Part shown: positions 3,766 through 44,449 of the stretch, piece by piece
How the letters are laid out: every line of letters begins with the position of its first letter
Numbering within the stretch: position 1 is the first letter of the stretch
Assembly (NCBI GenBank): GCA_040756655.1
Contig: JBFLYN010000005.1
Span: 4,563-68,562, forward strand
Direction: 5' to 3'
DNA: 64,000 nt
From: Bacillota bacterium
GTDB lineage: Bacteria; Bacillota; Sulfobacillia; UBA8153
Made by a program: the position numbers and the translations under genes
Notes under the pieces: model-generated
Told to the model about the DNA's origin: nothing
Database searches by the model: none
What the model saw: the letters and a program-made list of their open reading frames with translations, nothing else

Positions 3766-3794
3766 TTATCTCACCTCCCTTTTTATCCTCCAAC

Positions 3795-7649: not shown

Positions 7650-7665
7650 AGGCTTCGCCCTGCCC

Positions 7666-9303: not shown

Positions 9304-9314
9304 ACCCCCTGACC

Positions 9315-10018: not shown

Positions 10019-10049
10019 TGGTGTGTTGTCACGAAGGGAGAAATGAACC

Positions 10050-10241: not shown

Positions 10242-10379
10242 TGCCTGGACCCCCGGCACACCGGGGGTCCGGTCCCTACTCCTATCCTTTCCCAAACAGC
10301 TTCATGATCGCGCAAAGGATCGCCCCAATGGGTCTTGGCACCCGGATAACATGTATCCTCAAAGCACAGCGCCCCTCTC

Positions 10380-12606: not shown

Positions 12607-12627
12607 TTCACACCACTCCCTTGTCCA

Positions 12628-28724: not shown

Positions 28725-30322
28725 CTGAGGGTTATGTTTGCTTGATCCTGCACGCTCACCTACCCTTCATCCGCCACCCGGAGCACCCGTGGTTCCTCGA
28801 AGAAAGATGGTTGTTCGAGGCCATCAACGACTGCTATCTCCCACTCCTGGACGTGCTGGACGGCCTGGCGCGTGATGGTGTCAGGACCCGTCTTACCCTC
28901 TCTTTGACTCCCACCCTCATGGCCGGGCTCGATGATGAGCACCTCAGGGACCGGTTTGCGGCCCACCTTCGTGATTTGGTGGAGCTGGCCCGGAAGGAAG
29001 AGGACCGCACGCGCCATTCCGAGTATCACCACCTGGCCCAGTTCTACGCGCACCGGTTTTCCCGGCACCTGGCCAGCTACGAAGGCCGGGGCCGGGACCT
29101 GGTTTCTGCCTTCGCTCGTCACCAGGACGAAGGGCGCCTGGAGATCCTGGCCAGCGCCGCCACCCATGCCTACCTACCGCTGCTAGGCAGCGAGCAGGCG
29201 GCACGGGCACAAGTCATCACGGGTGTTGAGGCCTACCGGCGACGCCTGGGACGTTCTCCCCGGGGTTTCTGGCTGCCCGAGTGTGGCTACCGGCCGGGGT
29301 TGGATCACTTCCTGGCCGAAGCGGGAGTGGAATACGTGATCCTGGAAACCCACGGGGTTACCCATGCGGTACCGCGACCTCGCTACGGCTACCTGGCTCC
29401 CATCACCATGCCCGCGGGAGTCAAGGCTTTCGGGCGAGACCCCGAGTCCTCCAAGCAGGTATGGAGCGCCGACGAAGGCTATCCCGGCGATCCTTGGTAC
29501 CGGGACTACTACCGGGACATAGGTTTTGACCTTGACTATGACTACGTCCGCCCACACCTGGGACCGCCCGGTCAGCGCCTGTGCACCGGGTTCAAGTATC
29601 ACCGGATCACCCACCGCCGGTCCGAGCACAAAGAGCTGTACCAGCCCCACGCTGCCTGGGAACGCGCCGTGGTCCACGCGGGAAACTTTGTGTTCAACCG
29701 GGCCAAGCAGGTGGAATGGCACCGGGGCCACATGGACCGCCTGCCGTTCCTGGTCTGCCCCTACGATGCCGAGCTCTTTGGCCACTGGTGGTTTGAGGGC
29801 CCGTGGTGGCTCGACCAAGTAGTGCGCATGCTGCAAAACCACCCGGTGCTTGAGCCGGCCACTTGCGGCGACTACCTGGACCGGTACCCGAAAAACCAGA
29901 GGTGCCAGCCATCCTTGTCCAGCTGGGGATGCCGCGGCTATAGCGAAGTCTGGCTGGAGGGCAGCAACGACTGGCTGCACCGGCACCTGCACGTGGCGGC
30001 CCGGCGCATGGAGGAACTGGCCCGGCATTTTGAGCGCCCTTCCTACCTGGAACGCCGAGCCCTAAACCAGGCCGCCCGGGAGCTAATGCTTGCCCAGGCC
30101 AGCGACTGGGCCTTCATCCTCAAGACCGGCACCTTTCCGGGCTACGCCCGCCGACGTTTCAAGGGTCACATCGCCGGCTTTCTCGAGCTATACCATGGGC
30201 TCAAGCGAGGAACCCTGGATGAAGCCAGGGTGGTCACCCTGGAAAACCAGACTCCCCTCCTTCACCACGTGGACTACCAGGTCTTTCGACCGGGCGAGGC
30301 AGCCAGGGCCGCCGGGAGCTGA
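28721..30322 (+). CDS. GH57-family 1,4-alpha-glucan branching enzyme
   Basis: MTEGYVCLILHAHLPFIRHPEHPWFLEERWLFEAINDCYLPLL... and the FWLPECGY motif are typical of GH57 branching enzymes. Confidence 0.85.
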   Translation: MTEGYVCLILHAHLPFIRHPEHPWFLEERWLFEAINDCYLPLLDVLDGLARDGVRTRLTLSLTPTLMAGLDDEHLRDRFAAHLRDLVELARKEEDRTRHSEYHHLAQFYAHRFSRHLASYEGRGRDLVSAFARHQDEGRLEILASAATHAYLPLLGSEQAARAQVITGVEAYRRRLGRSPRGFWLPECGYRPGLDHFLAEAGVEYVILETHGVTHAVPRPRYGYLAPITMPAGVKAFGRDPESSKQVWSADEGYPGDPWYRDYYRDIGFDLDYDYVRPHLGPPGQRLCTGFKYHRITHRRSEHKELYQPHAAWERAVVHAGNFVFNRAKQVEWHRGHMDRLPFLVCPYDAELFGHWWFEGPWWLDQVVRMLQNHPVLEPATCGDYLDRYPKNQRCQPSLSSWGCRGYSEVWLEGSNDWLHRHLHVAARRMEELARHFERPSYLERRALNQAARELMLAQASDWAFILKTGTFPGYARRRFKGHIAGFLELYHGLKRGTLDEARVVTLENQTPLLHHVDYQVFRPGEAARAAGS

Positions 30323-30325
30323 AGG

Positions 30326-32671
30326 TCAAGATTGGAGAAGACACCTGACCCGCTCTGCCAGGCTGTCCGCAAGTTCGGCGGCAGTTTCCATGTTGGAGGC
30401 TTCTGCATAGATGCGATAGGCAGCTTTTTGGCCATCGGGGCGGGCCAGTACCCAACCGTCCGGCAACAGGACGCGGACCCCGTCCACTAGTTCCAGATGT
30501 TGCCGTTGATAGCCAGCGATGAGCTCGCGCATGACTTTGCCTGTTTGCTCCCAAGGGCAGGGTATTTCAACTTCCACCCGGTTGAACACGGGCAGCCGGG
30601 CCAGAGCCTGCGCCAGGGTCTGCCCGGTATGGGTCAGCCGGCTGATGACATAGGTCACCCTCAGGATTTCGTCGCTCCAAAACCGGCCCTGGTCTATGTG
30701 CTTTCGTCCCAGATCGATGGGGATTTCGCGGGCCCGGGCAGCAAAGCCGGGTCCTGCGGCGGGCAGCCGGACCACCTCACCTTGATACTGCCGGGCCAAT
30801 TCCTCCAAGACCCCGGGCGCGTGCACGGGTACGGCCAGGCGCGTTCCGCCCGAGGCGAAGAACAGGTGCGCGGTGAGCACCAGGAAGGTGCCGGCATCCA
30901 GGGCCGCCCCCCGGTGCCCCAATCGTACTTCCTCATCTTCCACCAGCAGTTCCAGGTCCTGGTCATCGCCATCATGAGTGCATTCCACCGCCAGGCGGTA
31001 GCAGAGCGAATCCAGGAGTTCCCGGGCCGGGCTGGGGGCCAACAGCCGCAACCGCCGGCCTTCTCCTGGAGAAGATTTGACGGCGCCGGTGACCCAGTCC
31101 AGGTAACGGTCGGTTACCCCCGCGACTGCCCGGGGAATGCCCACCCGGCCACCCCCGGCGGTCTCCGGTCGCTCCAGTGCCTGTTCCAGTCGCCGCAGCC
31201 TGGCTCCGACCAGTTCGCCCCCGTCCTGGTCCAGGAGGCGGATGACCATGCCGGTCCCGGCCGCCGCCACGTAGGCTCCGGCTGCCCGTTCGTGCTCGGT
31301 AACGGCGTAGCGGGCCAGCTGGGGCATGGTTACTCCCAGCTCTACTGTGTCCTGGCCGCACGCCCACACCCCGGCGGAAAGGGCCGCCGCCACGGCCCGG
31401 GCGGCCGGATCCTTGCTGTGACCCAGCACCACCACCCCGCCCAGTGACCCCAGGGCCGTGCCCAGCCGGCAGGCATCCTCCACCAGGAGCTCCCGGTTGA
31501 GCGTCCCTTCTACCCGCCCTGGGTGCAGGAGTGGTCCCAAACCCTGGCCGGGAGCAGCCAGGTGCCGGCTCAGGGTCCGCCCGGCCGGTACGATCTGCCC
31601 GGGCCATACCTTCACCCCCGGGCCCACCCGCGCCCCGCGCTCCACCCGGCTGTTGTCGCCCACTACGGCCCGGGCGTAGACGGAGCTGTCGTCATGAAGG
31701 AAACTTCCCTCGCCCGCCACGGCTTCCAGCACTTCAGCCCCGGGGCCCACGGTAGTTCCCTCCCAGATGGTGGCCTGCTTGAGACGGGCTCCCGCCTCCA
31801 GCCGGGACCGGCGTCCCAGGCAGCTGTTGGCCCCCACTACTGCACCAGGCGCTACCAGGGCGCCCGCCCCGATGACGGCCGGGCTGTGCACCGTGCCGCC
31901 GATCTTCACGCCGGGTTCCACCCATACCCCAGGGGCTAGCTCCCGGCCCGGGATTTTCACCGCCACTCGCCCGTTGAGAGCGTCAACCTGCGCCCTCCGG
32001 TACTGGTCCAGGTCGCCGATATCGCACCAGTAGCCGTCCAACACAACCCCATGTAGCCGTTCACCCTGGGACAGAAGCCGTGGAAAAAGGTCGCGGGAGA
32101 AATCGTAGGGCCCGTCCGGGACTTGGTCCAAAACCTCTCCTGCCAGGAGATAGAGCCCGGTATTGACGGTGTCGCTGAACACTTCCCCCCAGGATGGCTT
32201 CTCCAGGAATTTCACCACCCGCCCGTCGGGGGCAGTAATGACCACCCCGTACTCCAGCGGCCGGGTCACCCGGGTCAGTCCCAGCGTCACCCGGCCCCGG
32301 CTCTCGCAGTGGGCAGCCAGGAAGGCGCTCAGGTCAAAGTCAGTGAGGCAGTCGCCACTGATGACCAAGACGGTACCGCGGTATCCCCGCACGGCATGCC
32401 GCACGCTGCCGGCAGTGCCCAGGGGAGTCTCCTCCCGGACATAATCCACCCGCAGTCCATATGACGACCCGTCCTTTACGTGGTCCATGATGACCCCAGG
32501 CAGATATTGCAGGGTAATGGTCACGTCGATGATGCCGTGAGCCTTTAGTAACTCCAGGATGTACTCGATTACCGGACGGTTGGCCACGGGCACCATGGGC
32601 TTGGGCCTCCGGCAAGTGAGCGGTCTTAGGCGGGTTCCCTCCCCACCCGCCATGATCACTGCCCTAACCAT
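30326..32671 (-). CDS. sugar-1-phosphate nucleotidyltransferase fused to a divergent phosphohexomutase (PGM/PMM)-like C-terminal domain
   Basis: The N-terminus MVRAVIMAGGEGTRLRPLTCRRPKPMVPVANRPVIEYIL is an NTP-transferase domain and is followed by left-handed beta-helix repeats. The C-terminal roughly 400 aa resemble the four-domain phosphohexomutase fold (...DGVRVLLPDGWVLARPDGQKAAYRIYAEA...). The expected TASHNP active-site loop reads GHSKDP and the RPSGTEP loop reads RPDGQKA. Confidence 0.7.
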   Translation of the reverse strand: MVRAVIMAGGEGTRLRPLTCRRPKPMVPVANRPVIEYILELLKAHGIIDVTITLQYLPGVIMDHVKDGSSYGLRVDYVREETPLGTAGSVRHAVRGYRGTVLVISGDCLTDFDLSAFLAAHCESRGRVTLGLTRVTRPLEYGVVITAPDGRVVKFLEKPSWGEVFSDTVNTGLYLLAGEVLDQVPDGPYDFSRDLFPRLLSQGERLHGVVLDGYWCDIGDLDQYRRAQVDALNGRVAVKIPGRELAPGVWVEPGVKIGGTVHSPAVIGAGALVAPGAVVGANSCLGRRSRLEAGARLKQATIWEGTTVGPGAEVLEAVAGEGSFLHDDSSVYARAVVGDNSRVERGARVGPGVKVWPGQIVPAGRTLSRHLAAPGQGLGPLLHPGRVEGTLNRELLVEDACRLGTALGSLGGVVVLGHSKDPAARAVAAALSAGVWACGQDTVELGVTMPQLARYAVTEHERAAGAYVAAAGTGMVIRLLDQDGGELVGARLRRLEQALERPETAGGGRVGIPRAVAGVTDRYLDWVTGAVKSSPGEGRRLRLLAPSPARELLDSLCYRLAVECTHDGDDQDLELLVEDEEVRLGHRGAALDAGTFLVLTAHLFFASGGTRLAVPVHAPGVLEELARQYQGEVVRLPAAGPGFAARAREIPIDLGRKHIDQGRFWSDEILRVTYVISRLTHTGQTLAQALARLPVFNRVEVEIPCPWEQTGKVMRELIAGYQRQHLELVDGVRVLLPDGWVLARPDGQKAAYRIYAEASNMETAAELADSLAERVRCLLQS

Positions 32672-33920
32672 GCGTCTCTCCCTGCCCGTACTGGCCGGCC
32701 AGCATCTGGCGTCCCAGGGCCCGGGCTCTCCTGATCATCTCCGATGACAGGTCCCGGCGCCAAGAACTGTCCCGGTGTGCGGCCACGGTGGCGGTGTACA
32801 CGCCGAAAGTGGCCGCCGCAATACCCGGCCAGGAGTAGTCGCGCACTGCCTTCTGGTAGGCGGCGGCGACCAGCCTCTGGCGAGTGGGCTCGTTGGTGAG
32901 CAAGCGGATGATGTGTTCAGCCAGGGCCCGGGCGTTGCCGGGCTCGGTCTTGATCCCGTTGACCTCGTGTTCGACGATTTCGGCAAGGCCCCCGGTGTCC
33001 GAGACCACCAGCGCCGCACCGGAAGCCATGGCTTCCAGGGCCACAATGCCGAAGGGTTCGTACAGGCTGGGGAACACGGCCACCGCCGCCAGCCGGTAGA
33101 GCTTGGCCAGGGTCTCATCGTCCACGTAGCCGGCAAATGTAACCCGGTCGCCCACCCCCGCTCCGGCGGCCCGGTGCTGCAGTTCGGAGGCGGCCGGGCC
33201 TGATCCCACCACTATGAAGCGAGCTTCCGGACAGGCTTCCAGCACCCGGGGTGCGGCGTCCAGGAGCACGGACACCCCTTTTTCCGGCACCAGCCTCCCC
33301 ACGAACAGGACGTTCGGGCTCCGGCCGGGGGCCAGGGGGTCGGCGGCCAGCTGGCCTGGGTCGATGCCGTTGGGTATGACCGCCAGCTTCTCCGGAGGCA
33401 AACCGAACACCGACATCAAGTCGGACTTCATGTACTGGGAGCAGCAGATGACCTTCCATGCCTCGTAGGTAAGATACCATTCCACGCCGCTGATGTATCG
33501 CTGGTCCGGATTGTGGAGTCCCTGGTGGCGGCCGTGTTCCGTGGCGTGAATGGTGGCAATAAGCGGGGTCCGGTAAAGGTGTTTGAGCGCCCGGGCCGCC
33601 AGTGCCACCAGCCAGTCGTGGGCATGGATCAGGTCGAAGGGCCCCTCGCCCTCCATGATGGAGACCCCCTGCTCCAGCATGGCCACGTTCAGCTGTAGGA
33701 CCCAGGGCAGAAAACCTGGGGTGGTAACCGGATAGGGCTGGACCCGGTGGATGGTGACACGTGCCTGGGTTTCCCTGGGCACGCTGCCCTCTTGCCCGCA
33801 GGTTAGCACGTGGACTTCCACCCCGCGCCCGGACAGGGCCCCGGCCAGGTGGTATACGTGCCTGGCCAGCCCGCCCACGACCCGGGGCGGGTACTCCCAT
33901 GTCAACATCAGCACCCGCAT
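32664..33920 (-). CDS. GT4-family glycosyltransferase, probable alpha-1,4-glucan synthase (GlgA-like)
   Basis: An ATG at 33920 with a GGAGG RBS gives MRVLMLTWEYPPRVVGGLARHVYHLAGAL. The EX7E region (FPSLYEPFGIVALEAMASGAALVVSDTGGLAEIV) is present. The upstream part of the ORF in the track is not coding. Confidence 0.8.
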   Translation of the reverse strand: MRVLMLTWEYPPRVVGGLARHVYHLAGALSGRGVEVHVLTCGQEGSVPRETQARVTIHRVQPYPVTTPGFLPWVLQLNVAMLEQGVSIMEGEGPFDLIHAHDWLVALAARALKHLYRTPLIATIHATEHGRHQGLHNPDQRYISGVEWYLTYEAWKVICCSQYMKSDLMSVFGLPPEKLAVIPNGIDPGQLAADPLAPGRSPNVLFVGRLVPEKGVSVLLDAAPRVLEACPEARFIVVGSGPAASELQHRAAGAGVGDRVTFAGYVDDETLAKLYRLAAVAVFPSLYEPFGIVALEAMASGAALVVSDTGGLAEIVEHEVNGIKTEPGNARALAEHIIRLLTNEPTRQRLVAAAYQKAVRDYSWPGIAAATFGVYTATVAAHRDSSWRRDLSSEMIRRARALGRQMLAGQYGQGETHG

Positions 33921-33924
33921 GTAA

Positions 33925-35886
33925 CTACCTCCTCTGTTCTGGATCAGGAAGCGGCGGTGCACCGCCCAGCACGTCTTCGTGGTAAGCTCGGAGCACTTCG
34001 CCCACGCTCCAAGCCTGGGCGATGCAACCGCCCGGACGGTGCGGGGCACTGCCGTCAAATACCTCAGAAACTGAGCCCAACCCGGCGTCGCCGGTATGGT
34101 CCAGGAGCGGTTCCAGGAGCAACGCCGCATACCGGCGCGAGGAATCGGGGTTGGTGCGGGTAAGCGCCGTCAGAAACGGGCCCAAAAGCCAAGGCCACAC
34201 CGTGCCCTGGTGATATGCCCGGTCTCGTTCTCGGGGACTTCCCCGGTAGGCCGGGTGATAGTCCGGGTGGTCCGGTGACAGCGTCCTGAGCCCGTATGGG
34301 GTCAGCAGCGACTGCCCGCACACCTCCACGACCCGAGCGGCGGCTTCACCCTCTAACACCGGGTAGGGCAAGGAGACGGCCAGCAGCTGGTTGGGGCGCA
34401 GCCGGTCGTCGGGGCAGACCCCCGCTACGTCCCGCAGAAACCCCAGCTGCTGGTTCCAAAACTGCTGTTGGAAGCTGTTTTTGACCAGCCCGGCCAGTTG
34501 CCCGTAGACTGCAGACTCGTCGCTGCCACCGTCCCGGGCCAGAAACTCCAGGGTGCGCAGGGCATTGTACCACAGGGCGTTGATCTCCACCGGCTTGCCC
34601 GTGCGCGGGGTGAACACCTCGTGCCCGTGCTTGGCGTCCATCCAGGTCAGTTGCAGGCCCTCTCCGTCATGGTCCAGGAGGCCGTCGGCACCGGCGTGGA
34701 TACCGTAGGCCGTCCCCCGCCGGTACCAGCCCACAATGTCCACCAGGGCCGGGTAGAGCTGGCGGCGCACAAACCCCATGTCCCCGCCATATTGCAGGTA
34801 CTTGTAGACGGCGTAGAACAACCACAGGCTGGCGTCAATGGTGTTATACTCGGGGCGCGCGCCTTGGTCGGGAAAGCGGTTGGGAACCAGCCCCCGGTGC
34901 CGGGCCCCGGCGAAGGTCGCCATGATGCTGGCCGCCGCCTCCAGGCGCCCACTCAGCAGGCAGACCCCGGGCAGGGCTATGAACGCGTCTCTCCCCCAGT
35001 CGGAAAACCAGTGGTAGCCGGCGATGAGAGTCTTTTGCCCGGTGGCCCGGCGGTCCACCACGAAGGCACCCGCCGAACGATGTAGCCAGCGCACGCGCGC
35101 ATCGCGGTGCCCGGGCACTTGCTCACTGGCAGCCCGGGCGTGCTGGGCGACCGGGTCCAGGTCCGGTGCGGCCCGGGTGGAGGCCCAAAAGTACGCGGGT
35201 CGTCCCTCTGCCAGCTCCAGCCGGAAGACGCCGGGCTGGTAATGGTCCTCGCTGTGGTCCAGCCCGCGCTGGTCCTCCACCGGGTACAGCATGGAGCGGT
35301 ACCAGTGGCCACCCGGGTGGTAGGACCCGTCGGATACGTGGAGGTGGATGGTCCTGGCACCATCAAAGGGTTGCAGCTCCACGGCCCGCTCGCCGGCAAC
35401 CTGCCAGAAGGGCCAGTCCCGCTCCTGGTTGAGGTGGTGATAGTGGCGGTAGTTGACCAGCGGCGCCAACTCCAGCACGGCCCGGTCCTGCGCGAGCAGC
35501 CGGTAGGCCAGGACCACGGTGTTTTCTCCCGGTACCATGAACAGCTCCTTTAGGACCAGGCCCCTGCCCAGGCTGTACGTCCACCGGGGATGCGGGTCCA
35601 GTTCGAACCGCACCAGCCACCGGTGCCCGCCCGGGTGAACAGTCCCCGGGTAGAAGCTGGCGCCCAGGTGGTACGTGTCCCGGCCCCAGCTTACGGTCTC
35701 GTCCACCCTGGACACCAGAAGGTGCCTTTCAGCCGGGGGGTTGAACGCGGCCATGAGCAACCCGTGGTAGCGCCTGGTGTTGATGCCCAGGACCGTTGAT
35801 GAGGCAAAGCCGCCCAGCCCGTTGGCTACGAGCCACTCCCGCCTGGTGCCGGCTTCCAGGGTCAGATCCAGGCCGGTCAGGCGCAT
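33925..35886 (-). CDS. amylo-alpha-1,6-glucosidase / glycogen debranching enzyme (GDE_N + GDE_C family)
   Basis: MRLTGLDLTLEAGTRREWLVANGLGGFASSTVLGINTRRYHGLLMAA is a typical GDE N-terminus, and the C-terminal domain is an (alpha/alpha)6 barrel. An ATG at 35886 follows a G-rich RBS; a GTG at 35901 is also possible. Confidence 0.8.
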   Translation of the reverse strand: MRLTGLDLTLEAGTRREWLVANGLGGFASSTVLGINTRRYHGLLMAAFNPPAERHLLVSRVDETVSWGRDTYHLGASFYPGTVHPGGHRWLVRFELDPHPRWTYSLGRGLVLKELFMVPGENTVVLAYRLLAQDRAVLELAPLVNYRHYHHLNQERDWPFWQVAGERAVELQPFDGARTIHLHVSDGSYHPGGHWYRSMLYPVEDQRGLDHSEDHYQPGVFRLELAEGRPAYFWASTRAAPDLDPVAQHARAASEQVPGHRDARVRWLHRSAGAFVVDRRATGQKTLIAGYHWFSDWGRDAFIALPGVCLLSGRLEAAASIMATFAGARHRGLVPNRFPDQGARPEYNTIDASLWLFYAVYKYLQYGGDMGFVRRQLYPALVDIVGWYRRGTAYGIHAGADGLLDHDGEGLQLTWMDAKHGHEVFTPRTGKPVEINALWYNALRTLEFLARDGGSDESAVYGQLAGLVKNSFQQQFWNQQLGFLRDVAGVCPDDRLRPNQLLAVSLPYPVLEGEAAARVVEVCGQSLLTPYGLRTLSPDHPDYHPAYRGSPRERDRAYHQGTVWPWLLGPFLTALTRTNPDSSRRYAALLLEPLLDHTGDAGLGSVSEVFDGSAPHRPGGCIAQAWSVGEVLRAYHEDVLGGAPPLPDPEQRR

Positions 35887-36028
35887 GCCCGTCCCCCCCA
35901 CGTCCAGCGTCTTTCCCTATGGTCAACCGCAGGTGGCGCAATTATACGGCACCGCACCTTCGGCACACTCCGGGCTTGGTGGTCATACGCTGGATAGACT
36001 GAGCGCATCAAAAGGAGGGCCCTTGCCG

Positions 36029-36994
36029 ATGCCGTCACTCTTTGCCACCGTGCCCTGCGAAGATGCAGGCTCCAAATACTGCCCGTGCCAGCTGGCGCTG
36101 ACCGGGAACTGCCTGGCGTGCCCGGTGCTCAACCAGGGCGGAGCGTGCGATGACTGCGCGTGGAGTGGCACGTGCGTGCTGGTGGAGGCAGCCTGGAACC
36201 GGGGGGAAGCTCGCCCCGGGCGCTCGGAGTACGAGGTGACGGTGGTGGACCGGGTACAGCTGGCTCCCCCGGCCTTCGCCCTGGAAATCAAGGTACCGCC
36301 CGGGCTCGTGGACGGGCTCCAGCCCTCAGGTAGCTTTTTGATGGTCCGCCCGGCCGGGTCGGAACACTGGTTTAACGTGCCTCTTTCCGTAGCGCGGCTC
36401 GATCCGGCCCGTGGCACAGTCACTCATTTTGTGCAAGTGGCGGGTCCCAAGACCCGCACACTGGAACAACACCGGGGCCAGCTGGTGGTGCAGGGGCCCT
36501 TTGCCAGCGGGCTGGTAGGACGGAGGTATCTCCAGGCCCGGCAGGCAGGCCGGAGCCTGCTGGTGGCCAAAGGCATCGGGCAGGGACCCGCCCTGCACCT
36601 GGCCACCAACCTGTTGGCGGCCGGCGGCCGGGTGGACGCCCTGCTGGGACCCGGGGAGCTGGGCCGGGTGGTAATCGACGGGGAATTGGCGGCCCTGGGT
36701 GCCTCGGTGACAGTGCTCAAGCGCGAAAGAGACAAGAACGGGGGCACCTTTCGCCTGTTCTTGTCCCGGGGCAAGTATGACCTCTTGGTCAGTGCCGGGT
36801 CCGACCAGCAGCACCAGGCGCTGTGGAAATTGGCGACCAAGGTAAGCCCCGGGACCCAGATGGTATACACCAACAACGCCGTGATGTGCTGCGGGGAAGG
36901 CATCTGCGGCAGCTGCGGCACCCAGCTGGATGCAGGCTTTACCCGGGCCTGCAAGGCCAGGCTGGCGGCCGCCGATGTGCTGGCACGCAACTGA
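36029..36994 (+). CDS. PyrK-like FAD/NAD(P)-binding oxidoreductase with a Cys-rich N-terminal extension and a C-terminal [2Fe-2S]-type motif
   Basis: The ATG at 36029 has an AAAGGAGGG RBS. The N-terminus is Cys-rich (CPCQLALTGNCLACPVLNQGGACDDCAWSGTC). A ferredoxin-reductase-like core follows, and the C-terminus carries CCGEGICGSCG, as in DHODB electron-transfer subunits. Confidence 0.6.
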   Translation: MPSLFATVPCEDAGSKYCPCQLALTGNCLACPVLNQGGACDDCAWSGTCVLVEAAWNRGEARPGRSEYEVTVVDRVQLAPPAFALEIKVPPGLVDGLQPSGSFLMVRPAGSEHWFNVPLSVARLDPARGTVTHFVQVAGPKTRTLEQHRGQLVVQGPFASGLVGRRYLQARQAGRSLLVAKGIGQGPALHLATNLLAAGGRVDALLGPGELGRVVIDGELAALGASVTVLKRERDKNGGTFRLFLSRGKYDLLVSAGSDQQHQALWKLATKVSPGTQMVYTNNAVMCCGEGICGSCGTQLDAGFTRACKARLAAADVLARN

Positions 36995-37013
36995 ACCTTC
37001 GGGGAGGTAAGAA

Positions 37014-38292
37014 AATGGGAAACAGGGTCCGCGTGCTGGTAGCGGGCGGGGGTTGGGCCGGGTGCGCTGCAGCGTTGGCGGCAGCCAGGGCCGGGGTCCA
37101 GGCAGTGATGTGCGAGCGCACCGACATGCTACTGGGCACAGGCCTGGCCGGGGGGATCATGCGCAACAATGGCCGCTGGACTGCGGCGGAGGAGATCATC
37201 GCCCTGGGGGGAGGCGAGCTCTTCCTGTGCTGCGATGAAAACGCCCTCCACCGTAACCTGGACTTCCCCGGGCACCGCCACGCCAGCCTATACAACGTGA
37301 TCAGCCTCGAACCAGCCGTGAGGCGGCTTTTGGCACGGGCCGGAGTGGAAGTACGGCTGGAGACCAGGATAGTGGGCGTTATCTCTGATGGACGGCATCT
37401 AGAGGCCGTGCGCACCCATGAGGGAGAGGAACTGGAGGCAGCGGCCTTTGTGGACGCCACGGGCACCGCCGGGCCCATGGGCAACTGCCACCGCTACGGC
37501 AACGGTTGTGTCATGTGCATGTTGCGCTGTCCGGCCTTCGGCCCGCGGGTGAGTGTCTCTGCCCTGGCAGGCGTGGGCGAACTGGCAGCCGTCAAGCGCG
37601 CCGGGCACCTGGGCGCCATGAGCGGGTCATGCAAGCTACCCAAGGCCAGCCTCGCCCCGGAACTGGCCCAGCGCTTGAGCCGGGAGGGAGTAGTCCGGCT
37701 GCCCCTGCCCGAACCACTGGCGGCCCGGAGCAAGCTGGGCCTGAAGGCCTGCCAGCAATACGCCCTGCCCGAATACGCCGAGTCGGTTATCCTCCTGGAC
37801 ACGGGCGACGTGAAGCTGATGTCGCCATACCTGGCCCTCGATGACCTGCGCCGCATCCCCGGGCTGGAAAACGCTGTGTACACCGATCCCAAGGCCGGAG
37901 GGCGCGGGAATTCCGTGCGCTTTACGGCGCTCACGCCTCATGGCCCCGAATTGCGGGTGGAGGGCCGCGAGAACCTGTTCTGTGCCGGAGAAAAATGCGG
38001 TGTGCTGGTGGGGCACACCGAAGCCATAGTCACCGGAACGCTGGCCGGGCATAATGCCGCCCGCGTGGCCCAGGCCCGCGCGCCCGTGACCCTGCCACCC
38101 CAGCTGGCGGTGGGGGATTTCGTCGCCTACACCACCCGGGTCTTCGGCACGCCGACAGGACAGTCGCAATCCTTCACCTTTGCCGGCTCCACGTACTTCG
38201 AGCGCATGCAAGCCAACGGCCTGTACCTTACGGACCCAGAGGATATCGCAGGGCGCATTCGCGCGGCTAGAGCCCATGGTCTCTTTACGTAG
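37014..38292 (+). CDS. GidA/MnmG/TrmFO-superfamily FAD-dependent oxidoreductase with an internal Cys cluster
   Basis: The N-terminal Rossmann motif is RVLVAGGGWAGCAAALAAARAG. The C-terminal LFCAGEKCGVLVGHTEAIVTGTLAGHNAA resembles the MnmG/TrmFO signature. A CHRYGNGCVMCMLRC motif (C-x6-C-x2-C-x3-C) suggests an Fe-S cluster. The gene lies 19 nt downstream of the PyrK-like gene and has its own GGGGAGG RBS. Confidence 0.55.
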
Positions 38293-38294
38293 CG

Positions 38295-39461
38295 CTAGCC
38301 CAGGGCCGCCCGGATCCTCTGGGTAGCCTCCCGCAGGCGGTCCTCTTCCACCGTGCAGGCAAAGCGAAGGTAGTCCCGCCCGGCTTTTCCGTAGGCAGCA
38401 CCGGGGACGGCGATGACGTGAGCTTGTTCCAGGAGGCGGGCAGCCAGCCCGGCTGCATCCTCGCCCGGCGGAGCCGGTGCCCACACGTAAAAGGTGCCCA
38501 AGGGAGCTTTTACGTCAAACCCCGCCTGGCGGAGGCCCTCCACCAGCACTTGCCTGCGGGCAGCGTAGACCTGGTTCATGCCGGTGATGAAATCAGCAGG
38601 ATCGTGCTCTAGGGCCGCCACCCCGGCCAGTTGCACGGCGGCAAACTGACCAGAGTCGGTGTTGGTCTTGATGATGCCCAGGGCCCGGAAGACCACATCC
38701 TGGTTGCCCAGGGCCGCACCCAACCGCCAGCCCGTCATGTTAAAAGGTTTAGACAGGGAGTAGAACTCCACGGCCACTTCCCGGGCTCCCGTCACTTGCA
38801 GGATGCTGGGCGCCCGGTAACCATCGAAAGTCAGCTCCACGTAGGCAGCATCGTGACACACCACCAGGCCGTGCCGGTGGGCAAAATCCACCACGTGCTC
38901 GAAAAAGCCCAGGTCGACCACGCCGGTGGTGGGGTTGTTGGGGTAGTTCAAAAGGAGTACCCGGGCCCGGTCGAGGACCGCGGCCGGCACCGCCTCTAAG
39001 TCGGGGAGGAAGCCATTGTCCGCGGCCAGAGGGAGCGGGTAGGGTTCAGCACCGGCCAGCAGAGTGTGGGTACGGTAGACCGGGTAGGCCGGTTCGGGCA
39101 CCAGCGCCACATCGCCGGGACCCACCAGCCCCCAGAGCAGGTGGGCCAGGCCTTCCTTGGACCCGATGACCGTCATCACTTCCCGCTCCGGGTCGAGGTT
39201 CACTCCGAAGCGGCGCTGGTAATAGCGGGCCATGGCCGAACGGAATTCCAGGATGCCCTCGTAAGGCGGGTAGCGGTGAGTGGCCGGGTCCTGGGCGGCC
39301 CGGGCAAGCGCCTCAATGACATGGATGGGGGTAGGGCGGTCGGGGTCCCCCACCCCGAGATCGATGAGGTCGGCCCCCTGCGCGGTCAGGGCGGCCTTCT
39401 TCTTGTTCAGTTCGGCAAACAGGTAGGGCGGTACCTGGGCAATGCGCTCTGCGAATCTCAC
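38295..39461 (-). CDS. dapL: LL-diaminopimelate aminotransferase (DapL-type class I aminotransferase)
   Basis: GTG start at 39461 (VRFAERIAQVPPYLFAELNKKKAALTAQGADLIDLGVGDPDRPTP...), with NPNNPTTGVV also present. The start overlaps the dapF stop in a GTGA arrangement. Confidence 0.8.
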   Translation of the reverse strand: MRFAERIAQVPPYLFAELNKKKAALTAQGADLIDLGVGDPDRPTPIHVIEALARAAQDPATHRYPPYEGILEFRSAMARYYQRRFGVNLDPEREVMTVIGSKEGLAHLLWGLVGPGDVALVPEPAYPVYRTHTLLAGAEPYPLPLAADNGFLPDLEAVPAAVLDRARVLLLNYPNNPTTGVVDLGFFEHVVDFAHRHGLVVCHDAAYVELTFDGYRAPSILQVTGAREVAVEFYSLSKPFNMTGWRLGAALGNQDVVFRALGIIKTNTDSGQFAAVQLAGVAALEHDPADFITGMNQVYAARRQVLVEGLRQAGFDVKAPLGTFYVWAPAPPGEDAAGLAARLLEQAHVIAVPGAAYGKAGRDYLRFACTVEEDRLREATQRIRAALG

Positions 39462-40318
39462 CGGACATTCCCTCCCGTCAAACCCGATGTAAACACCCCA
39501 GTGCAGATTTCCTCGGCCGGCCCCCGGTGCCAGGCATGGCCGTCGTCCCGCCAGACTATCTCCAGGGTCCCGCCTGGCTGGTGGACTTTGACCTCTCGCT
39601 GGCAACGCCCGGCCAACACGGCGGCCACTGCCGACGCCGTGGCTCCGGTGCCCGAGGCCATGGTGATACCTGAACCCCGCTCCCAGATGCGCATGGCCAG
39701 CTCCTGCTGGTTGAGAACCTGAACGAACTCCACGTTGGTCCGTTCAGGAAATGCTGGGTGGTGTTCTATGCTGGGACCAGTGTGCTCCACTTCCACTTGC
39801 CACACATCCTCGACGAAGATCACACAATGCGGGTTCCCCAGGGAAAGACAGGTCACCGGGAACTTGACCCCGTCGACTACCAGGAGTTCTCCTATGACAT
39901 GGTCGCCGGGAGGACCAACCATGGGAATATCGGCCCTTCTGAGCCGGGGGACGCCCATGTCTACCTCCACGGCAGTGACCTTCCCGCCCTCCACCACCAG
40001 GCGGGGCCGGATGATGCCGGCGAGGGTTTCCACGGCCAGTTCCTGCTTTTGGGTCAGGCCGCGGTCGTATACGAAACGGGCCAAGCAACGCATGCCGTTG
40101 CCGCACATCTGGGCCTCTGAACCATCGGCGTTGAACATGCGCATGCGAAAATCCGCCCGGTCTGACGGCAGGACCAGGATGAGTCCATCGGAACCGACAC
40201 CATAGTGGCGGTGGGAGACCCGCCGGGCCACCGTGGGCCAATCCGTCCCCTCGTCTCCCCGGGGGAGGTAGACGTAGATATAGTCATTGCCCAGCCCGTG
40301 CATTTTCACAAACTCCAT
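39458..40318 (-). CDS. dapF: diaminopimelate epimerase
   Basis: The ATG at 40318 gives MEFVKMHGLGNDYIYVYLPRG... and the catalytic Cys regions (MCGNGMRC, GSGTGA... MASGTGA) are present. Confidence 0.9.
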   Translation of the reverse strand: MEFVKMHGLGNDYIYVYLPRGDEGTDWPTVARRVSHRHYGVGSDGLILVLPSDRADFRMRMFNADGSEAQMCGNGMRCLARFVYDRGLTQKQELAVETLAGIIRPRLVVEGGKVTAVEVDMGVPRLRRADIPMVGPPGDHVIGELLVVDGVKFPVTCLSLGNPHCVIFVEDVWQVEVEHTGPSIEHHPAFPERTNVEFVQVLNQQELAMRIWERGSGITMASGTGATASAVAAVLAGRCQREVKVHQPGGTLEIVWRDDGHAWHRGPAEEICTGVFTSGLTGGNVR

Positions 40319-40341
40319 GGTGCACTCACTCCAGTCCCGGT

Positions 40342-43077
40342 TTAAAGATCGTGTCTTTCCACCCCGGAGCGTGCAATTCCTGCCACAACTTGCGCCAGAA
40401 GATGCCTGACGGCGGCTGTTACCAGCATCAGGCCGGACACGGCCAGCGCCGCCATCCATTCTTCCAAGGTTAGACTCCTAGTCTGGAAGTGCGGCTGCAG
40501 GGCCGGGTGAGTGGCCGCCACCAGGGTCATGGCCACTGAGCACGTCACCGCCACCACGAGCCAGGGGTTGCTGGTCAGGCCCATGCTGAAGACGTTGCGC
40601 GTTTCCGACCGGCACTCAAAAACGTGGAAAAGCTGGCAAAACACCAGTGTAACAAAGGCCACGGTGCGGGCCCGGGCAACATCGCCGGTCTGGCCGAGGC
40701 ACCAGCCGAAGGTCAGCGCCGTGGCCGCTGCGATCATTATCCCGCGCACCGCTATCTTTATGCCAAGGCCCCTGGAAAACACACCCTCCTCGCTCCGCCG
40801 GGGCGGGCGCCGCATGTTGTCCGGGTCCGCCGGGTCCACGCCCAGGGCCATGGCGGGCAGCCCGTCGGTGACCAGGTTGACCCACAGGATCTGCATGGGT
40901 ATTAGGGGCAGTGGCCATCCCAGCAGGACGGCGGCCAGCATGACCAGGACTTCGCCTACGTTACATGAAAGAAGGTACCGGATGAACTTGCGGATGTTGT
41001 CGTAGATGGCCCGCCCTTCCTCCACCGCCGCCACGATAGTGCGGAAGTTGTCATCGGCCAAGATCATGTCGGAGGCCTCTTTGGTCACGTCGGTGCCCGA
41101 AAGCCCCATGGCGATGCCGATGTCCGCTTCCTTGACGGCCGGCGCGTCGTTGACCCCATCGCCGGTCATGGCTACCACGTGTCCCTGGGCCCGGAAGGCC
41201 CGGATGAGCCTGAGCTTGTGCTGGGGTGAAACCCGGGCGTAAACCGAAGTGTGCTCCAGGTGGCGGGCCAGTGCCGGGTCGTCCAGTGCGTCTAGCTGGG
41301 CGCCCGTCAGCACGCCTGTGCCCGGGGTCATGAGGCCGGTCTCCCGGGCGACGGCTGCGGCTGTGGCCGGGTGATCACCGGTGATCATGACCGGCCGGAT
41401 GCCCGCCTGGCGGCACCTGGATACCGCCAGCACCGCTTCGGGCCTGGGGGGATCCAACAGTCCCACGATGCCCAGGAAAACCGCGTCTTTCTCAATTTCC
41501 GTCTCACCGGTCGCGGGCAGGTCCCGGTAGGCCAGCGCCAGGACACGCAGCGCCTGCCCGGCCATGGTATCGGCCTGACCGGTGATGCGCCTTTGCCACC
41601 CGGCGTCCAGCCGGTGTTCGGAATCCCCGGCCCGGGCTAGACTGCACATGCCCATGACCGTATCAGGCGCGCCCTTGATGTAGGCACGTCGCACGGCGCC
41701 GCGCTGGACGACCACGCTCATGCAGCGGCGCTCGGCGCTGAAAGGTAGTTCGTCCACGCGGGGGTTGCATCGTGAGAGCGTTTCCCCATCCAGGCCCAGT
41801 TTGGCCGCTGCCACCAGCAGGGCGCCCTCGGTGGGGTCCCCGCTTACCTTCCACTTCCGCTGGATCCTACCCCGTTGCCTTACGTTTTCCTGGAGTAGCC
41901 GTGCATTGTTACAGATGGCCCCGGCGGTGAGGATCAAGGCAAGATCCGGCGCTGCCGGGGCGCCTTCCACCAGGCTGAACTGGCCCTCCGGGCTGTAGCC
42001 GCTGCCGCTGACCTCGTAACGAGCTCCGGAGGCCAGGGTCACTTCCCGGAGAGTCATCTCGTTTTTGGTGAGCGTCCCGGTCTTATCCGAGCAGATCAGG
42101 GTGGCGCACCCCAGGGTCTCCACAGCCGGCAGCCTCCGTACTATGGCCGAACGCGCCGCCATGCGCTGTACGCCCAGGGCCAGCGCTACCGTGACCACGG
42201 CCGGGAGCCCCTCCGGTATGGCGGCCACGGCCAGGCTGACCCCGGCCAGGAACATGTGGAACCAGGACTCACCGCGGGTGATGCCGGCTGCCACCACCAG
42301 CCCGCAGACAAGAAGACAGGCCAGCCCCAGGTAGCGGCCAAGATGGTCCAGGCGTCGCTGGAGGGGAGTGTCCCCGGTGCCGGCCTCTTCGATGGTTTCG
42401 GCGATGGCCCCCATTTCCGTCTCCATGCCCGTGGCCACCACTACTCCCCGGGCCCGGCCCTGGGTCACCACCGTTCCCATGAACACCATGTTGGTCCAGT
42501 CGGGCGACGCTAGCTCCCGGCCGGGTAGCACCCCGGCATGCTTGGCCACGGGCAGGGATTCGCCGGTCAGGAGCGATTGGTCCACTTCCAGCGCCCGGGC
42601 GTGCAAAATCCGGGCATCGGCGGGCACCCGGTCGCCCGGGCCCAGCTGGATGATGTCCCCTGGCACCAGCTCCTCGGCCGGGACCACGCATTCAGCTCCG
42701 TCACGCAGCGCCCGGGCCACCGGAGCGGTCATGCGTTTCAGTGCATGTAAGGAACGCTCGGCCCGGTATTCCTGCACAAAGCCCAAGACGGCGTTGAGCA
42801 CCACGATGACCACGATAGTGACGGCGTCGGCCACTTCCCCCAAGAGGGCGGCCACGGCAGTGGCGGCCAGCAACATCATGACCATGAAATCCTTGAACTG
42901 GTCCAAGAGGATCCGGAGCACCGGGAGCCCGTCGCCGGTTTCCAGGACATTAAGCCCGTAGCGGTCCAGCCGTTCGCGGCACTGGCGGCTGGTAAGCCCC
43001 TCCCACGAACTGCCCAGAAGCTCCAGGACCGTGTCGTTGTCCAGCCCGTGCCAGTGCAGTTTTCCCACTCCCGTCAA
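40342..43077 (-). CDS. calcium-translocating P-type ATPase (PMCA/SERCA-like, YloB homologue)
   Basis: 911-aa ORF with DKTGTLT, TGDGVNDAPAVK and MTGD motifs and 10 TM segments. The start is a TTG at 43077 or a GTG at 43068; neither has a good RBS. Confidence 0.9.
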   Translation of the reverse strand: MTGVGKLHWHGLDNDTVLELLGSSWEGLTSRQCRERLDRYGLNVLETGDGLPVLRILLDQFKDFMVMMLLAATAVAALLGEVADAVTIVVIVVLNAVLGFVQEYRAERSLHALKRMTAPVARALRDGAECVVPAEELVPGDIIQLGPGDRVPADARILHARALEVDQSLLTGESLPVAKHAGVLPGRELASPDWTNMVFMGTVVTQGRARGVVVATGMETEMGAIAETIEEAGTGDTPLQRRLDHLGRYLGLACLLVCGLVVAAGITRGESWFHMFLAGVSLAVAAIPEGLPAVVTVALALGVQRMAARSAIVRRLPAVETLGCATLICSDKTGTLTKNEMTLREVTLASGARYEVSGSGYSPEGQFSLVEGAPAAPDLALILTAGAICNNARLLQENVRQRGRIQRKWKVSGDPTEGALLVAAAKLGLDGETLSRCNPRVDELPFSAERRCMSVVVQRGAVRRAYIKGAPDTVMGMCSLARAGDSEHRLDAGWQRRITGQADTMAGQALRVLALAYRDLPATGETEIEKDAVFLGIVGLLDPPRPEAVLAVSRCRQAGIRPVMITGDHPATAAAVARETGLMTPGTGVLTGAQLDALDDPALARHLEHTSVYARVSPQHKLRLIRAFRAQGHVVAMTGDGVNDAPAVKEADIGIAMGLSGTDVTKEASDMILADDNFRTIVAAVEEGRAIYDNIRKFIRYLLSCNVGEVLVMLAAVLLGWPLPLIPMQILWVNLVTDGLPAMALGVDPADPDNMRRPPRRSEEGVFSRGLGIKIAVRGIMIAAATALTFGWCLGQTGDVARARTVAFVTLVFCQLFHVFECRSETRNVFSMGLTSNPWLVVAVTCSVAMTLVAATHPALQPHFQTRSLTLEEWMAALAVSGLMLVTAAVRHLLAQVVAGIARSGVERHDL

Positions 43078-43273: not shown

Positions 43274-44449
43274 TCAGATCTCTTTGGGCCGCAACCTTCC
43301 CAGTTCCCGGCCGTCCCGGGTCACCCGGGTGGTGCCGAACACCAGGCCGGTCACGGCCACCTCTACCGGCGTGTACACCCGGGCCTTCCCGCCGGCAAAG
43401 TCCAACCCCTCCAAGACTCCCGTGCCGGCCAGCTCACCCCGGCCGTCCAACAGACCCACCTGGAGCTGGTCGTATGCCGACTGGGACACGGCGTACACAC
43501 GACTTCTGTCCATCAACACAGGACGCGAGGGTGGGGATCCGGGCACCACGGCATAGATGCCATCGGCCGCCCGCTCGGCGTAGACTACCCCAGTTCCCAG
43601 CCGCAATTCCAGGGCCCGGCAGGCAGCGTCATCCAGGCGCTCTCCCGTGCGGTAGCGGGTGCGCAGGCACCTTACGCTGGCCAGGTCCAGCACGCGCAGG
43701 CTCCCGCCTTCCATGGCCCGCCGGTACCCTTCTTCGCGGGCTGCGCGCCGGTACTCCCGGTCTTTCCTCTGGACCCCCGGGGGTACTGCCAGCCTCCAGA
43801 TGCGGGAAGTGCTGGTATCCGGGTAGGCTCGTAACAGGTGCTCTACCTCGCCGGCCCGTTGGAGGGCGACCAGGTGCCGGGGCCTGAGGCCCTCCAGCTT
43901 GGCACCCTTCAGGTAACGCCCGTACGGCCCGTGGATGAGCCCGGTGGTGTTGACCACCACGGCGATGGCACCGCTTTGACGAGCCGCCTCCACCATGCGC
44001 CAGATGCCTGCCAAGAAGGTGGCCTCCACTCCCGGCGGCGAGGTGGCTCCCACGAAAAAGGCAGCGTCCGGGCTAAGTTCGCTCCAACGGGCGACTGGGC
44101 CCCGCACCCGGGCCATGGCGATGGTGCCCGGCGGGCCCAGGTCAGACTGGCCCGTATCCGTGTCCACTATGGCAGTAGCCAGCCCGGCCACAAACAGCAT
44201 GCGGGCCAATTCCAGGACGAACGTGGACTTGCCCGTGTCTGGGCCCCCTACAACCAGCACCAGTCCCGGGTCGGCCCGCACCCTTTCTACTAAGAAGCGC
44301 CCAGTTTGCATGGGTGGAATATTCTCCTCTCCCCATCCGCCGGGCTTCCTGCTCACCGCAGGTAACCTGCTGGTGGACCACGGGCCCCAGCTTGAGTGGC
44401 CCGGAGGATGGGGTCCCTTCAGAATGTTACTCTGACGTAGCGTATCCAC
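43274..44449 (-). CDS. Clp1/Grc3-family P-loop polynucleotide kinase homologue
   Basis: GRFLVERVRADPGLVLVVGGPDTGKSTFVLELARMLFVAGLATAIVDTDTGQSDLGPPGTIAMARV matches the Clp1 P-loop and the following D.GQ/PG segment. The start is either the GTG at 44449 or the ATG at 44311. Confidence 0.6.
   Translation of the reverse strand: MDTLRQSNILKGPHPPGHSSWGPWSTSRLPAVSRKPGGWGEENIPPMQTGRFLVERVRADPGLVLVVGGPDTGKSTFVLELARMLFVAGLATAIVDTDTGQSDLGPPGTIAMARVRGPVARWSELSPDAAFFVGATSPPGVEATFLAGIWRMVEAARQSGAIAVVVNTTGLIHGPYGRYLKGAKLEGLRPRHLVALQRAGEVEHLLRAYPDTSTSRIWRLAVPPGVQRKDREYRRAAREEGYRRAMEGGSLRVLDLASVRCLRTRYRTGERLDDAACRALELRLGTGVVYAERAADGIYAVVPGSPPSRPVLMDRSRVYAVSQSAYDQLQVGLLDGRGELAGTGVLEGLDFAGGKARVYTPVEVAVTGLVFGTTRVTRDGRELGRLRPKEI

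Follow-up and report, generated by a model that had tools for sequence, protein, structure and literature searches.

We identified a pair of adjacent genes, here called G1 and G2, that forms a two-gene unit on the plus strand of the window (the whole 64-kb stretch of DNA analysed), with good ribosome-binding sites for both genes. At a probability of about one half, the pair encodes a heteromeric, NAD(P)H-linked Fe-S flavoenzyme in the style of DHODB that acts on a small organic acid. The G2 family is among the larger protein families still without an assigned function, and solving it would reveal a redox reaction new to anaerobic amino- or organic-acid metabolism, or else a new enzyme coupling pyridine nucleotides and ferredoxin. 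The features of the unit are as follows.

36011..36019, + strand: ribosome-binding site AAAGGAGGG of G1, read from sequence, 5' of the ATG
36029..36994, + strand: gene 1 (G1), 321 aa, ATG start; PyrK-type FAD/NAD(P)-binding electron-transfer subunit, divergent NF004470/PRK05802 member
36050..36196, + strand: N-terminal 8-Cys domain of G1 (C10, C18, C20, C28, C31, C40, C43, C49), presumed metal or Fe-S cluster site
36224..36874, + strand: core of G1 at residues about 66-282, an FNR/PyrK-like barrel for FAD and a Rossmann fold for NAD(P)
36890..36952, + strand: C-terminal PyrK-type [2Fe-2S] motif of G1, C288-x4-C293-x2-C296-x11-C308, four Cys invariant in 20 homologues
36995..37014, + strand: G1-G2 spacer, 20 nt, containing the G2 ribosome-binding site GGGGAGG at 37001-37007, read from sequence
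37015..38292, + strand: gene 2 (G2), 425 aa, ATG start; GIDA-fold (MnmG/TrmFO-like) FAD protein, presumed catalytic subunit
37486..37533, + strand: ferredoxin-like insert of G2, C158-x6-C165-x2-C168-x3-C172-P173, presumed [4Fe-4S] site
37750..37752, + strand: invariant Cys246 of G2 (KACQQYA), aligned to the essential Cys277 of E. coli MnmG
37975..38061, + strand: C-terminal FAD-binding signature LFCAGEKCGVLVGHTEAIVTGTLAGHNAA of G2, residues 321-349

Locus and conserved pairing

A longer G1 reading frame from GTG 35777 was rejected in favour of the ATG at 36029, because the homologues begin at the MPSLF position. The gap between the genes is 20 nt and not the 19 nt given in the first-pass annotation. 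The unit lies between glycogen and dap genes, with GDE, aminotransferase and DapF genes flanking it. No sigma-70-like promoter or terminator convincingly brackets the pair, the 64-kb window contains no tRNA or Rfam element, and pyrD, nfnB and asrA/C are absent from the ORFs flanking the pair in the window.

The first-pass annotation had staked its proposal on the pair recurring in other genomes, and it does. Among 80 metagenome loci holding G1, G2 is adjacent on the same strand in 63, and the flanks of 13 more are too short to judge. Both orders occur in the 63 (33 with G1 first, 29 with G2 first, and one at a distance of 284 nt), and the gaps are short in either order. G1 is adjacent in 20 of the 24 loci of G2's own clade, and the pairing was seen again in L083, L084 and L085. 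Adjacency follows G2 phylogeny. G2 stands without G1 in about 59 of the 80 G2 loci sampled, and G1 lacks a G2 neighbour in Pelosinus and in a few gut contigs. An HI0933-like flavoprotein near the Pelosinus G1 was considered and rejected as a G2 relative, its match being confined to the FAD motif (E 0.004).

Two short G1 variants that carry only the 8-Cys head still adjoin G2; two further short 8-Cys variants lie on contigs too short for informative context. In NF004470 proteins, the 8-Cys domain shows a specific link to the G2 family.

Architecture of the two proteins

G1 had been described as a PyrK-like core with a C-terminal CCGEGICGSCG motif, and both are present: the protein has an FNR-like FAD/NAD fold and a four-Cys [2Fe-2S] motif in which C288, C293, C296 and C308 are invariant among 20 homologues. 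Four Cys ligands characterize the PyrK-type cluster, and three Cys plus Asp the NfnA type (PMC12221290). G1 nevertheless scores only 34-49 bits against the PyrK equivalogs, whose cut-offs of 219-314 are none of them reached (NF000799, 49.1 versus 314; NF000798, 39.2 versus 219; NF000797, 36.6 versus 270). Residues 8-319 align with positions 6-325 of the 330-position NF004470 profile (E 4e-72), a full-length architecture that includes the Cys-rich N-terminus, at 242.9 bits, which is under the curated cut-off of 313. Above that cut-off, at 358-441 bits, are four G2-adjacent orthologues from Clostridium, Tissierellia and Fervidicola; other orthologues reach 213-295 bits. Given its own score and those of the G2-adjacent orthologues, the G1 of the window is best regarded as a divergent member of the NF004470 lineage. 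NF004470 (PRK05802) bears the generic name [quoted passage not shown], with no function or partner on record.

The eight N-terminal cysteines reported in the first-pass annotation are all there and all invariant in 20 homologues, but they span 40 residues rather than 28, in the pattern C-x7-C-x-C-x7-C-x2-C-x8-C-x2-C-x5-C. A profile of this domain found 204 matches in 1.84 billion representative proteins, always N-terminal, and by this search the domain appears essentially restricted to the NF004470-type family. The domain already belongs to an NCBIfam family that is named although uncharacterised. In the predicted structure the 8-Cys domain has low pLDDT. The Cys insert of G2 likewise lies in a low-pLDDT loop (residues 152-176), as is expected of a site that needs its cofactor. 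Because pLDDT is low in both, the cluster types at these two sites are guesses.

The main Pfam match of G2 is GIDA (110 bits), without Fer4_20, and in structural comparison its predicted fold clearly matches MnmG and TrmFO best. The C-x6-C-x2-C-x3-C motif proposed from the sequence holds up well: C158, C165, C168 and C172, together with P173, show no variation among 18 homologues drawn from several phyla, and the insert is at least 92% conserved across 71 homologues. C206, C246 and C323 are also invariant in those 18. The MnmG/TrmFO-type signature LFCAGE...GHTEAIVTGTLAGHNAA, likewise noted earlier, is found at residues 321-349 and aligns to the MnmG/TrmFO motif (L)F(F/Y)AG..G..GY.E(A/S)...G.LAG.NA. 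The G1 and G2 motifs are not due to chance, because they are invariant across sequences of only 30-60% identity.

The GIDA-type FAD fold is common to G2 and MnmG, but identity to MnmG and TrmFO is about 20% and G2 adds the C-x6-C-x2-C-x3-C-P insert; the G2 family is a distinct Fe-S branch of this fold. It is very large and unnamed, labelled only "FAD-dependent oxidoreductase", and some members are mis-named MnmG or Gid in databases. Relatives occur in no fewer than 591 species representatives and, at 90% identity, make up over 7,000 clusters. Its distribution is almost entirely among anaerobes, mostly strict, including gut, biogas and syntrophic taxa. PDB sequence searches with the pair returned only distant MnmG/TrmFO and PyrK/NfnA relatives, and we found no paper on either the G1 or the G2 family.

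Genomic contexts and the proposed reaction

The G2 family occurs in two forms, one coupled to NAD(P)H through G1 and one uncoupled, with an identical active site. In Clostridia the G1-linked clade is found among scpAB, ytfJ, dacB, rluB and a PF06962 methylase, which are housekeeping or RNA-related genes. The pair often lies in a dacB/spmAB/ytfJ neighbourhood; a sporulation-specific role was set aside, since the pair is also present outside that neighbourhood, on a Sumerlaeota contig and in the window.

In the sister clade a full G1 is never present. The commonest partner of the sister-clade G2 is an IT-superfamily-like transporter, directly downstream in 26 of 80 loci, and a dedicated transporter beside G2 points to an imported substrate. 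In other loci the neighbours are a regulator of the FCD/GntR type, RidA, a PLP enzyme, a B12-binding protein accompanied by a KamB-like reactivase, TPP enzymes resembling ALS, or D-2-hydroxyacid dehydrogenases together with an aminotransferase. A literature search for KamB/KamC gave only unrelated matches. A search of the window for the partner genes of the sister clade (transporter, PLP enzyme, B12 protein, KamB-like protein, RidA, DUF6917 and regulator) found none of them. The sister-clade clusters supply a defined set of candidate substrates, for which co-expression of the two proteins is a concrete entry point.

At 117 positions the same residue is at least 92% conserved in both G2 clades, and there are no clade-discriminating residues. 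Since the conserved active-site residues are common to both clades, the chemistry of one should transfer to the other, and the substrate class of the G1-G2 pair is argued by transfer from the G1-less sister clade. The substrate would most likely be not tRNA but a small organic acid, whether an amino, imino, 2-oxo or 2-hydroxy acid.

From the motifs and folds we infer that G1 could serve as the pyridine-nucleotide-facing electron-transfer subunit, with an NAD(P)(H) site, FAD, a four-Cys [2Fe-2S] cluster and the extra 8-Cys metal domain. G2 would be the catalytic subunit of the complex, combining an MnmG/TrmFO-like FAD fold with an inserted four-Cys [4Fe-4S]-type site. Electrons may pass, in either direction, along the path NAD(P)H, FAD of G1, [2Fe-2S], 8-Cys cluster or clusters, [4Fe-4S] of G2, FAD of G2 and substrate. 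G1 would then be an optional adaptor linking the G2 reaction to NAD(P)(H), and G2 enzymes lacking G1 would presumably rely on ferredoxin or a different carrier. Among the functions suggested in the first-pass annotation, a reductive or oxidative NAD(P)H:acceptor system is the best fit; the folate or nucleic-acid option is weakened by the absence of MnmG/TrmFO residues and by the sister-clade contexts. Against a small acid as substrate, neither the clostridial setting of the pair nor that in the window is a catabolic cluster, and an invariant G2 cysteine aligns to the essential C277 of MnmG.

Known systems and alternative readings

No characterised complex matching G1 plus G2 was found. In class 1B DHOD (PyrK-PyrD) the partner is the FMN TIM-barrel protein PyrD, encoded by an adjacent pyrD, whereas G1 is paired with an FAD protein of GIDA fold that itself carries an Fe-S motif, and the G1 locus lacks pyrD and pyrimidine genes; PyrK also lacks the N-terminal 8-Cys domain. 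AsrB is encoded beside asrA and asrC (the siroheme subunit), neither of which occurs in the flanks of G1 in the window or among its conserved neighbours elsewhere. NfnB is GltD-like, with Fer4_20 and Pyr_redox_2, whereas the gene downstream of G1 encodes a GIDA protein without Fer4_20. The earlier statement that the pair is not Nfn, DHODB or AsrAB is borne out by the scores below the PyrK, MnmG and TrmFO cut-offs, the cluster ligands that differ from those of NfnA, and the lack of a PyrD, NfnB or AsrA/C partner.

A less probable reading is that the pair is an Nfn-like carrier enzyme without an organic substrate, interconverting NADH, NADPH and ferredoxin and possibly bifurcating at the FAD of G2. 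Bifurcation calls for a flavin from which two electron paths diverge, with ferredoxin reduction coupled to it; from the sequence, several Fe-S sites and two flavin sites are plausible. The architecture does parallel NfnAB, in that a PyrK/NfnA-like small subunit accompanies a larger FAD/Fe-S subunit. MnmG-type folds can use NADH directly, and the almost wholly anaerobic distribution is also in keeping with such a role. That the G2 active site stays constant in widely differing genomic contexts is expected if its substrates are universal carriers, and would also be compatible with an enzyme of general redox carriers instead of one with a specific substrate. NfnB-type proteins are Nfn when nfnA lies upstream and Fnor when it does not (PMC12221290), a split that the two G2 clades mirror; by the same improbable reading, the G1-less G2 would be a monofunctional ferredoxin:NAD(P)+ oxidoreductase serving neighbouring pathways. 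G2, however, is not GltD/NfnB-like, has no Fer4_20 or Pyr_redox_2-type architecture significant as its main match, and shows no evident second NAD(P)-binding motif. The [2Fe-2S] motif of G1 has four invariant Cys in place of the three Cys plus Asp of NfnA, and the dedicated transporter directly downstream of the sister-clade G2 in 26 loci points to a substrate that is imported.

It is more doubtful still that G2 is an Fe-S-dependent enzyme of MnmG/TrmFO lineage that modifies tRNA or rRNA, with G1 as its dedicated NAD(P)H reductase. G2 scores far below the MnmG equivalog TIGR00136 (32.7 bits versus a cut-off of 524.85) and the TrmFO equivalogs TIGR00137 (42.5 versus 428.65) and NF003739 (40.1 versus 262), the latter matches covering only residues 278-375. 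The first catalytic Cys is C47 in MnmG and C51 in TrmFO, where H308 is also catalytic (T. thermophilus numbering; PMC5954106). All are missing in the G2 homologues: MnmG Cys47 (MSCNP) falls in an alignment gap, there is no Cys at residues 36-60 in 18 homologues and no equivalent of TrmFO Cys51 in the N-terminal segment, and TrmFO His308 (HRNT) aligns to G298-N-S-V, in a column where every homologue has G, A or S. The alignment of G2 to MnmG by hhalign covers only residues 7-404 of 629, and the C-terminal helical MnmE-binding domain of MnmG (about 630 aa) is absent from G2.

What favours RNA modification is the alignment of invariant C246 to MnmG Cys277 (GPRYCPS), for which the hhalign probability is 93% overall and the local confidence low, with a single-sequence template. 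The very high conservation of G2 across phyla points the same way, as does the location of the pair immediately before rluB, a GNAT gene and the PF06962 methylase in Clostridia and Tissierellia, with G1 directly upstream of rluB in Pelosinus. The rluB block, however, is broadly syntenic housekeeping and also contains the G1-less cluster (four loci). The median pI of the G1-linked G2 (8.4, versus 7.7 in the sister clade) leans this way as well, but the difference is not discriminating. MnmG and TrmFO are folate/FAD-dependent tRNA-modifying enzymes, whereas the sister-clade G2, with the same conserved residues, stands beside a transporter, a metabolite-type regulator and amino- and 2-oxo-acid enzymes, contexts that point to small-molecule metabolism. 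Just as unlikely is a variant in which G2 forms a third, Fe-S-dependent GidA/TrmFO branch using C246 for covalent catalysis, the target being either a base in nucleic acid or a small molecule resembling a pyrimidine, with G1 as an NAD(P)H reductase acting through a new 8-Cys cluster domain.

That the adjacency is incidental, G1 being a normal PyrK, NfnA or AsrB subunit with its true partner elsewhere and G2 an unrelated flavoprotein, would accommodate the loci in which either gene stands alone, but it is effectively refuted by the co-occurrence counts, by adjacency that tracks G2 phylogeny, by PyrK scores far under every cut-off in a protein carrying a family-only 8-Cys domain, and by the lack of pyrD, nfnB or asrA/C nearby.

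Gene layout and the G1 family

The pair consists of G1, a predicted PyrK-type Fe-S flavoprotein with an N-terminal eight-cysteine domain, and G2, a predicted FAD/Fe-S protein of the GIDA fold. The two genes are co-directional, and their neighbours are divergent on one flank and convergent on the other; G1-G2 is therefore a self-contained two-gene unit. The mechanical ORF for G1 opens further upstream, at GTG 35777, and we place the real start at 36029 because all homologues begin at the MPSLF position.

Features of the pair and its flanks
33925-35901, minus strand: glycogen-debranching enzyme (GDE) gene, divergent from the pair
36029 (ATG)-36994 (end of TGA), plus strand: G1, 321 aa, with AAAGGAGGG just 5' of the ATG
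37015 (ATG)-38292, plus strand: G2, 425 aa, with GGGGAGG 5' of the ATG
38295-39605, minus strand: aminotransferase gene, convergent with the pair

All of the motifs that the first-pass annotation claimed for both genes are present, with two small corrections: G2 does lie shortly downstream of G1, after a spacer of 20 nt rather than 19, and the eight N-terminal cysteines of G1 span 40 residues (C10 to C49) instead of 28. Among 20 G1 homologues, 29-63% identical to the window protein, these eight (C10, C18, C20, C28, C31, C40, C43 and C49) are invariant, as are C288, C293, C296 and C308 near the C-terminus. Judged from the alignments, the conservation of the cysteine motifs of G1 and G2 far exceeds chance. 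The first 60 residues of G1 have low confidence in the predicted structure, as would be expected of a metal-dependent fold.

A Pfam search of G1 gave no match above threshold. NCBIfam NF004470 (PRK05802, [quoted passage not shown]) covers residues 8-319 end to end (E 4e-72, 243 bits), below its curated cut-off of 313 bits. The G2-adjoining orthologues from Clostridium tyrobutyricum, other clostridia, Tissierellia and Fervidicola reach 358-441 bits, which identifies NF004470 as the G1 family and makes the window protein a divergent member of it. The PyrK equivalogs give merely 34-49 bits against cut-offs of 219-314. A profile of the eight-cysteine domain, searched at E ≤ 1e-3 against 1.84 billion representative proteins, matched only 204, N-terminally in every case, and the full-length matches are, with few exceptions, G1-like and 300-350 aa long. 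One subgroup, about 270 aa in length (P0263, P0264, P0273, P0282), keeps the eight-cysteine head and has lost the [2Fe-2S] cysteines and the NAD motif GGIGQAP. In two informative loci, L063 (9320-10171, minus strand) and L167 (5001-5834, plus strand), these short variants lie convergent with G2 within the B12/PLP cluster described below.

Glycogen genes occupy 28721-35901 beside the pair (a GH57 branching enzyme, a 781-aa NTP-transferase, a GT4/GT5 synthase-like gene and the GDE). A similar setting recurs at L083 1597-4883 and L084 7308-10975, in two rather remote relatives (38-40% identity for G1), one with GDE and a glycosyltransferase, the other with GH15, CBM53 and GH57. This neighbourhood is probably lineage synteny, with no functional link evident. 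The DapF ORF (39458-40459, minus strand) overlaps the class I/II aminotransferase ORF by about 150 nt (39458-39605); the true aminotransferase start probably lies further into the ORF than the TTG chosen by the ORF lister. A 391-aa protein at 43274-44449 (minus strand), encoded just upstream of a P-type ATPase gene on the same strand, matches the CLP1_P P-loop domain (PF16575, E 5e-33) of the Clp1/polynucleotide-kinase-type family.

The G2 family and its pairing with G1

G2 matches Pfam GIDA (E 1.3e-31). It has the fold of MnmG and TrmFO and is neither enzyme, scoring 33 bits against the MnmG equivalog (cut-off 525) and 43 bits against that of TrmFO (cut-off 429). No counterpart of MnmG C47 or TrmFO C51 was found, residues 36-60 being free of cysteine in every homologue; the position of TrmFO His308 is Gly298 in the G2 alignment, and the MnmG C-terminal domain is absent (residue roles from PMC5954106). 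To judge from these residues, the family-defining MnmG/TrmFO chemistry is not conserved. Over 7,000 clusters in the database match G2; apart from a few with MnmG or Gid labels, all are named just "FAD-dependent oxidoreductase". Some public records (P0083, P0095, P0114) read MnmG/GidA or "tRNA (uracil-5-)-methyltransferase Gid"; the labels are in all likelihood mistaken, because scores fall far under the family cut-offs and the catalytic residues are absent.

Across 18 G2 homologues from Bacillota, Thermodesulfobacteriota/Syntrophia and Chloroflexota (54-75% identity; mean column identity 64%), C158, C165, C168 and C172 are invariant, together with C206, C246 and C323. The motif C-x6-C-x2-C-x3-C-P reads as a putative, stretched ferredoxin-type [4Fe-4S] signature. 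In the model, low confidence falls on the Fe-S insert (residues 152-176) and on the invariant D291-R302 loop.

When one genome was scanned for each species, relatives of G2 occurred in at least 591 species, and G1 adjoined G2 in only about 20 of the best 80 loci. This low figure arises because the G2 tree splits into a G1-linked clade A, with a full G1 adjacent in 20 of the 24 loci sampled besides the window, and a G1-less clade B (0 of 46 loci). Reciprocally, of 80 metagenome loci that contain a G1 relative, 63 carry G2 next to it in the same orientation (33 as G1>G2, 29 as G2>G1, one with a 284-nt gap). Flanks were too short to judge in 13, several of which have part of G2 at the edge of the contig; G2 is missing from four, two of which (L135, L136) keep an 89-aa remnant. 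Three more loci reached from G1 homologues are all G1-G2 or G2-G1 pairs, and L083 is syntenic with the window (GDE, G1 G2, P-type ATPase). The retention of both gene orders, in line with the G2 tree, speaks for a partnership, whether physical or functional; incidental adjacency is effectively excluded. An exception is Pelosinus, with the order G1-rluB-HI0933-like flavoprotein. In Pelosinus sp. UFO1 (L081 8001-11066) this 414-aa flavoprotein, which has only FAD motifs in common with G2, stands in its stead and may be an alternative partner of G1 or a mere neighbour.

Contexts of the G1-less sister clade

In 26 loci clade-B G2 stands immediately 5' of the gene for a polytopic membrane protein of 464 aa, whose DctM-like (IT-superfamily) signal is only weak. 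Its setting in thermophilic Firmicutes is a cluster of varying order and constant content: FCD/GntR regulator, DUF6917, RidA (an imine/enamine deaminase), a 489-aa PLP enzyme, G2, the transporter, an 83-aa protein, a 613-aa protein whose N-terminal B12-binding domain is closest to KamE/OraE, and a KamB-like reactivase (NF052386, 248 bits, cut-off 210). The cluster surrounds the G2 match in L003, L010, L012, L022, L028, L034, L046 (about 3500-16000), L062, L063 and L167; DUF6917 is fused to RidA in L167, and the PLP enzyme has only a weak DgaE/SelA-like signal. It looks like an uncharacterised amino-acid pathway of the B12/PLP aminomutase type. Elsewhere clade-B G2 adjoins ALS-like TPP enzymes (Thermodesulfobacteriota) or an aminotransferase and two D-2-hydroxyacid dehydrogenases.

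Fervidicola ferrireducens and Thermovorax subterraneus have both paralogues in one locus (PLP-G2a-regulator-c7-B12-KamB-G1-G2b-rluB), so that G1-less and G1-linked forms coexist there. At L045 1549-9260 and L057 1551-9269, one G2 comes after the PLP enzyme, the other after G1 and directly upstream of rluB. At 117 positions, both clades (71 sequences) have the same residue conserved to at least 92%, and no position separates one clade from the other; the two clades thus share one active site. From these sequences, G1 would seem to be an optional module for coupling and not the marker of a different reaction.

Proposed function and alternatives

We see the pair as a PyrK-type electron-transfer subunit that has acquired a new catalytic partner; as a system it is not of a wholly new kind. 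As the first-pass annotation held, it is neither class 1B dihydroorotate dehydrogenase (DHODB) nor NfnAB: it resembles both in outline of working, yet family scores, ligands and the G2 fold place it in neither. We favour, at a probability of about one half and by analogy, a DHODB-like logic. Electrons would pass between NAD(P)(H) and G1 through FAD, a PyrK-type [2Fe-2S] cluster and the eight-cysteine site (cofactors predicted from motifs), and from G1 to the four-cysteine cluster of G2 and its FAD, where a small organic acid would be oxidised or reduced. Ferredoxin or some other carrier would serve G1-less G2. An amino-, imino-, 2-oxo- or 2-hydroxy-acid is suggested by the transporter, FCD regulator, RidA, PLP and TPP enzymes, aminotransferase and 2-hydroxyacid dehydrogenases around clade B, and analogy suggests the same class for G1-linked G2.

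An Nfn-like, possibly bifurcating enzyme acting on carriers only would account for an active site constant across contexts, and the G2 clade split has a parallel in the division between NfnB and Fnor (PMC12221290). We consider it unlikely, given the non-NfnB architecture of G2, the dedicated transporter beside clade-B G2 and the PyrK-type cluster of G1, whose predicted ligands are four cysteines; those of NfnA are three cysteines and an aspartate (PMC12221290). Still less probable is a role in RNA modification, for which the fold of G2, the alignment of invariant C246 with essential MnmG C277 (at low local confidence) and the rluB/PF06962 neighbourhood in Clostridia do speak. The catalytic residues of MnmG and TrmFO are missing, however, the sister-clade contexts speak against it, and the rluB block, a housekeeping region of general synteny, hosts the G1-less cluster as well.

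Our searches found no solved structure of either family and no paper on either; the G1-G2 pair is a real, widespread and uncharacterised target.
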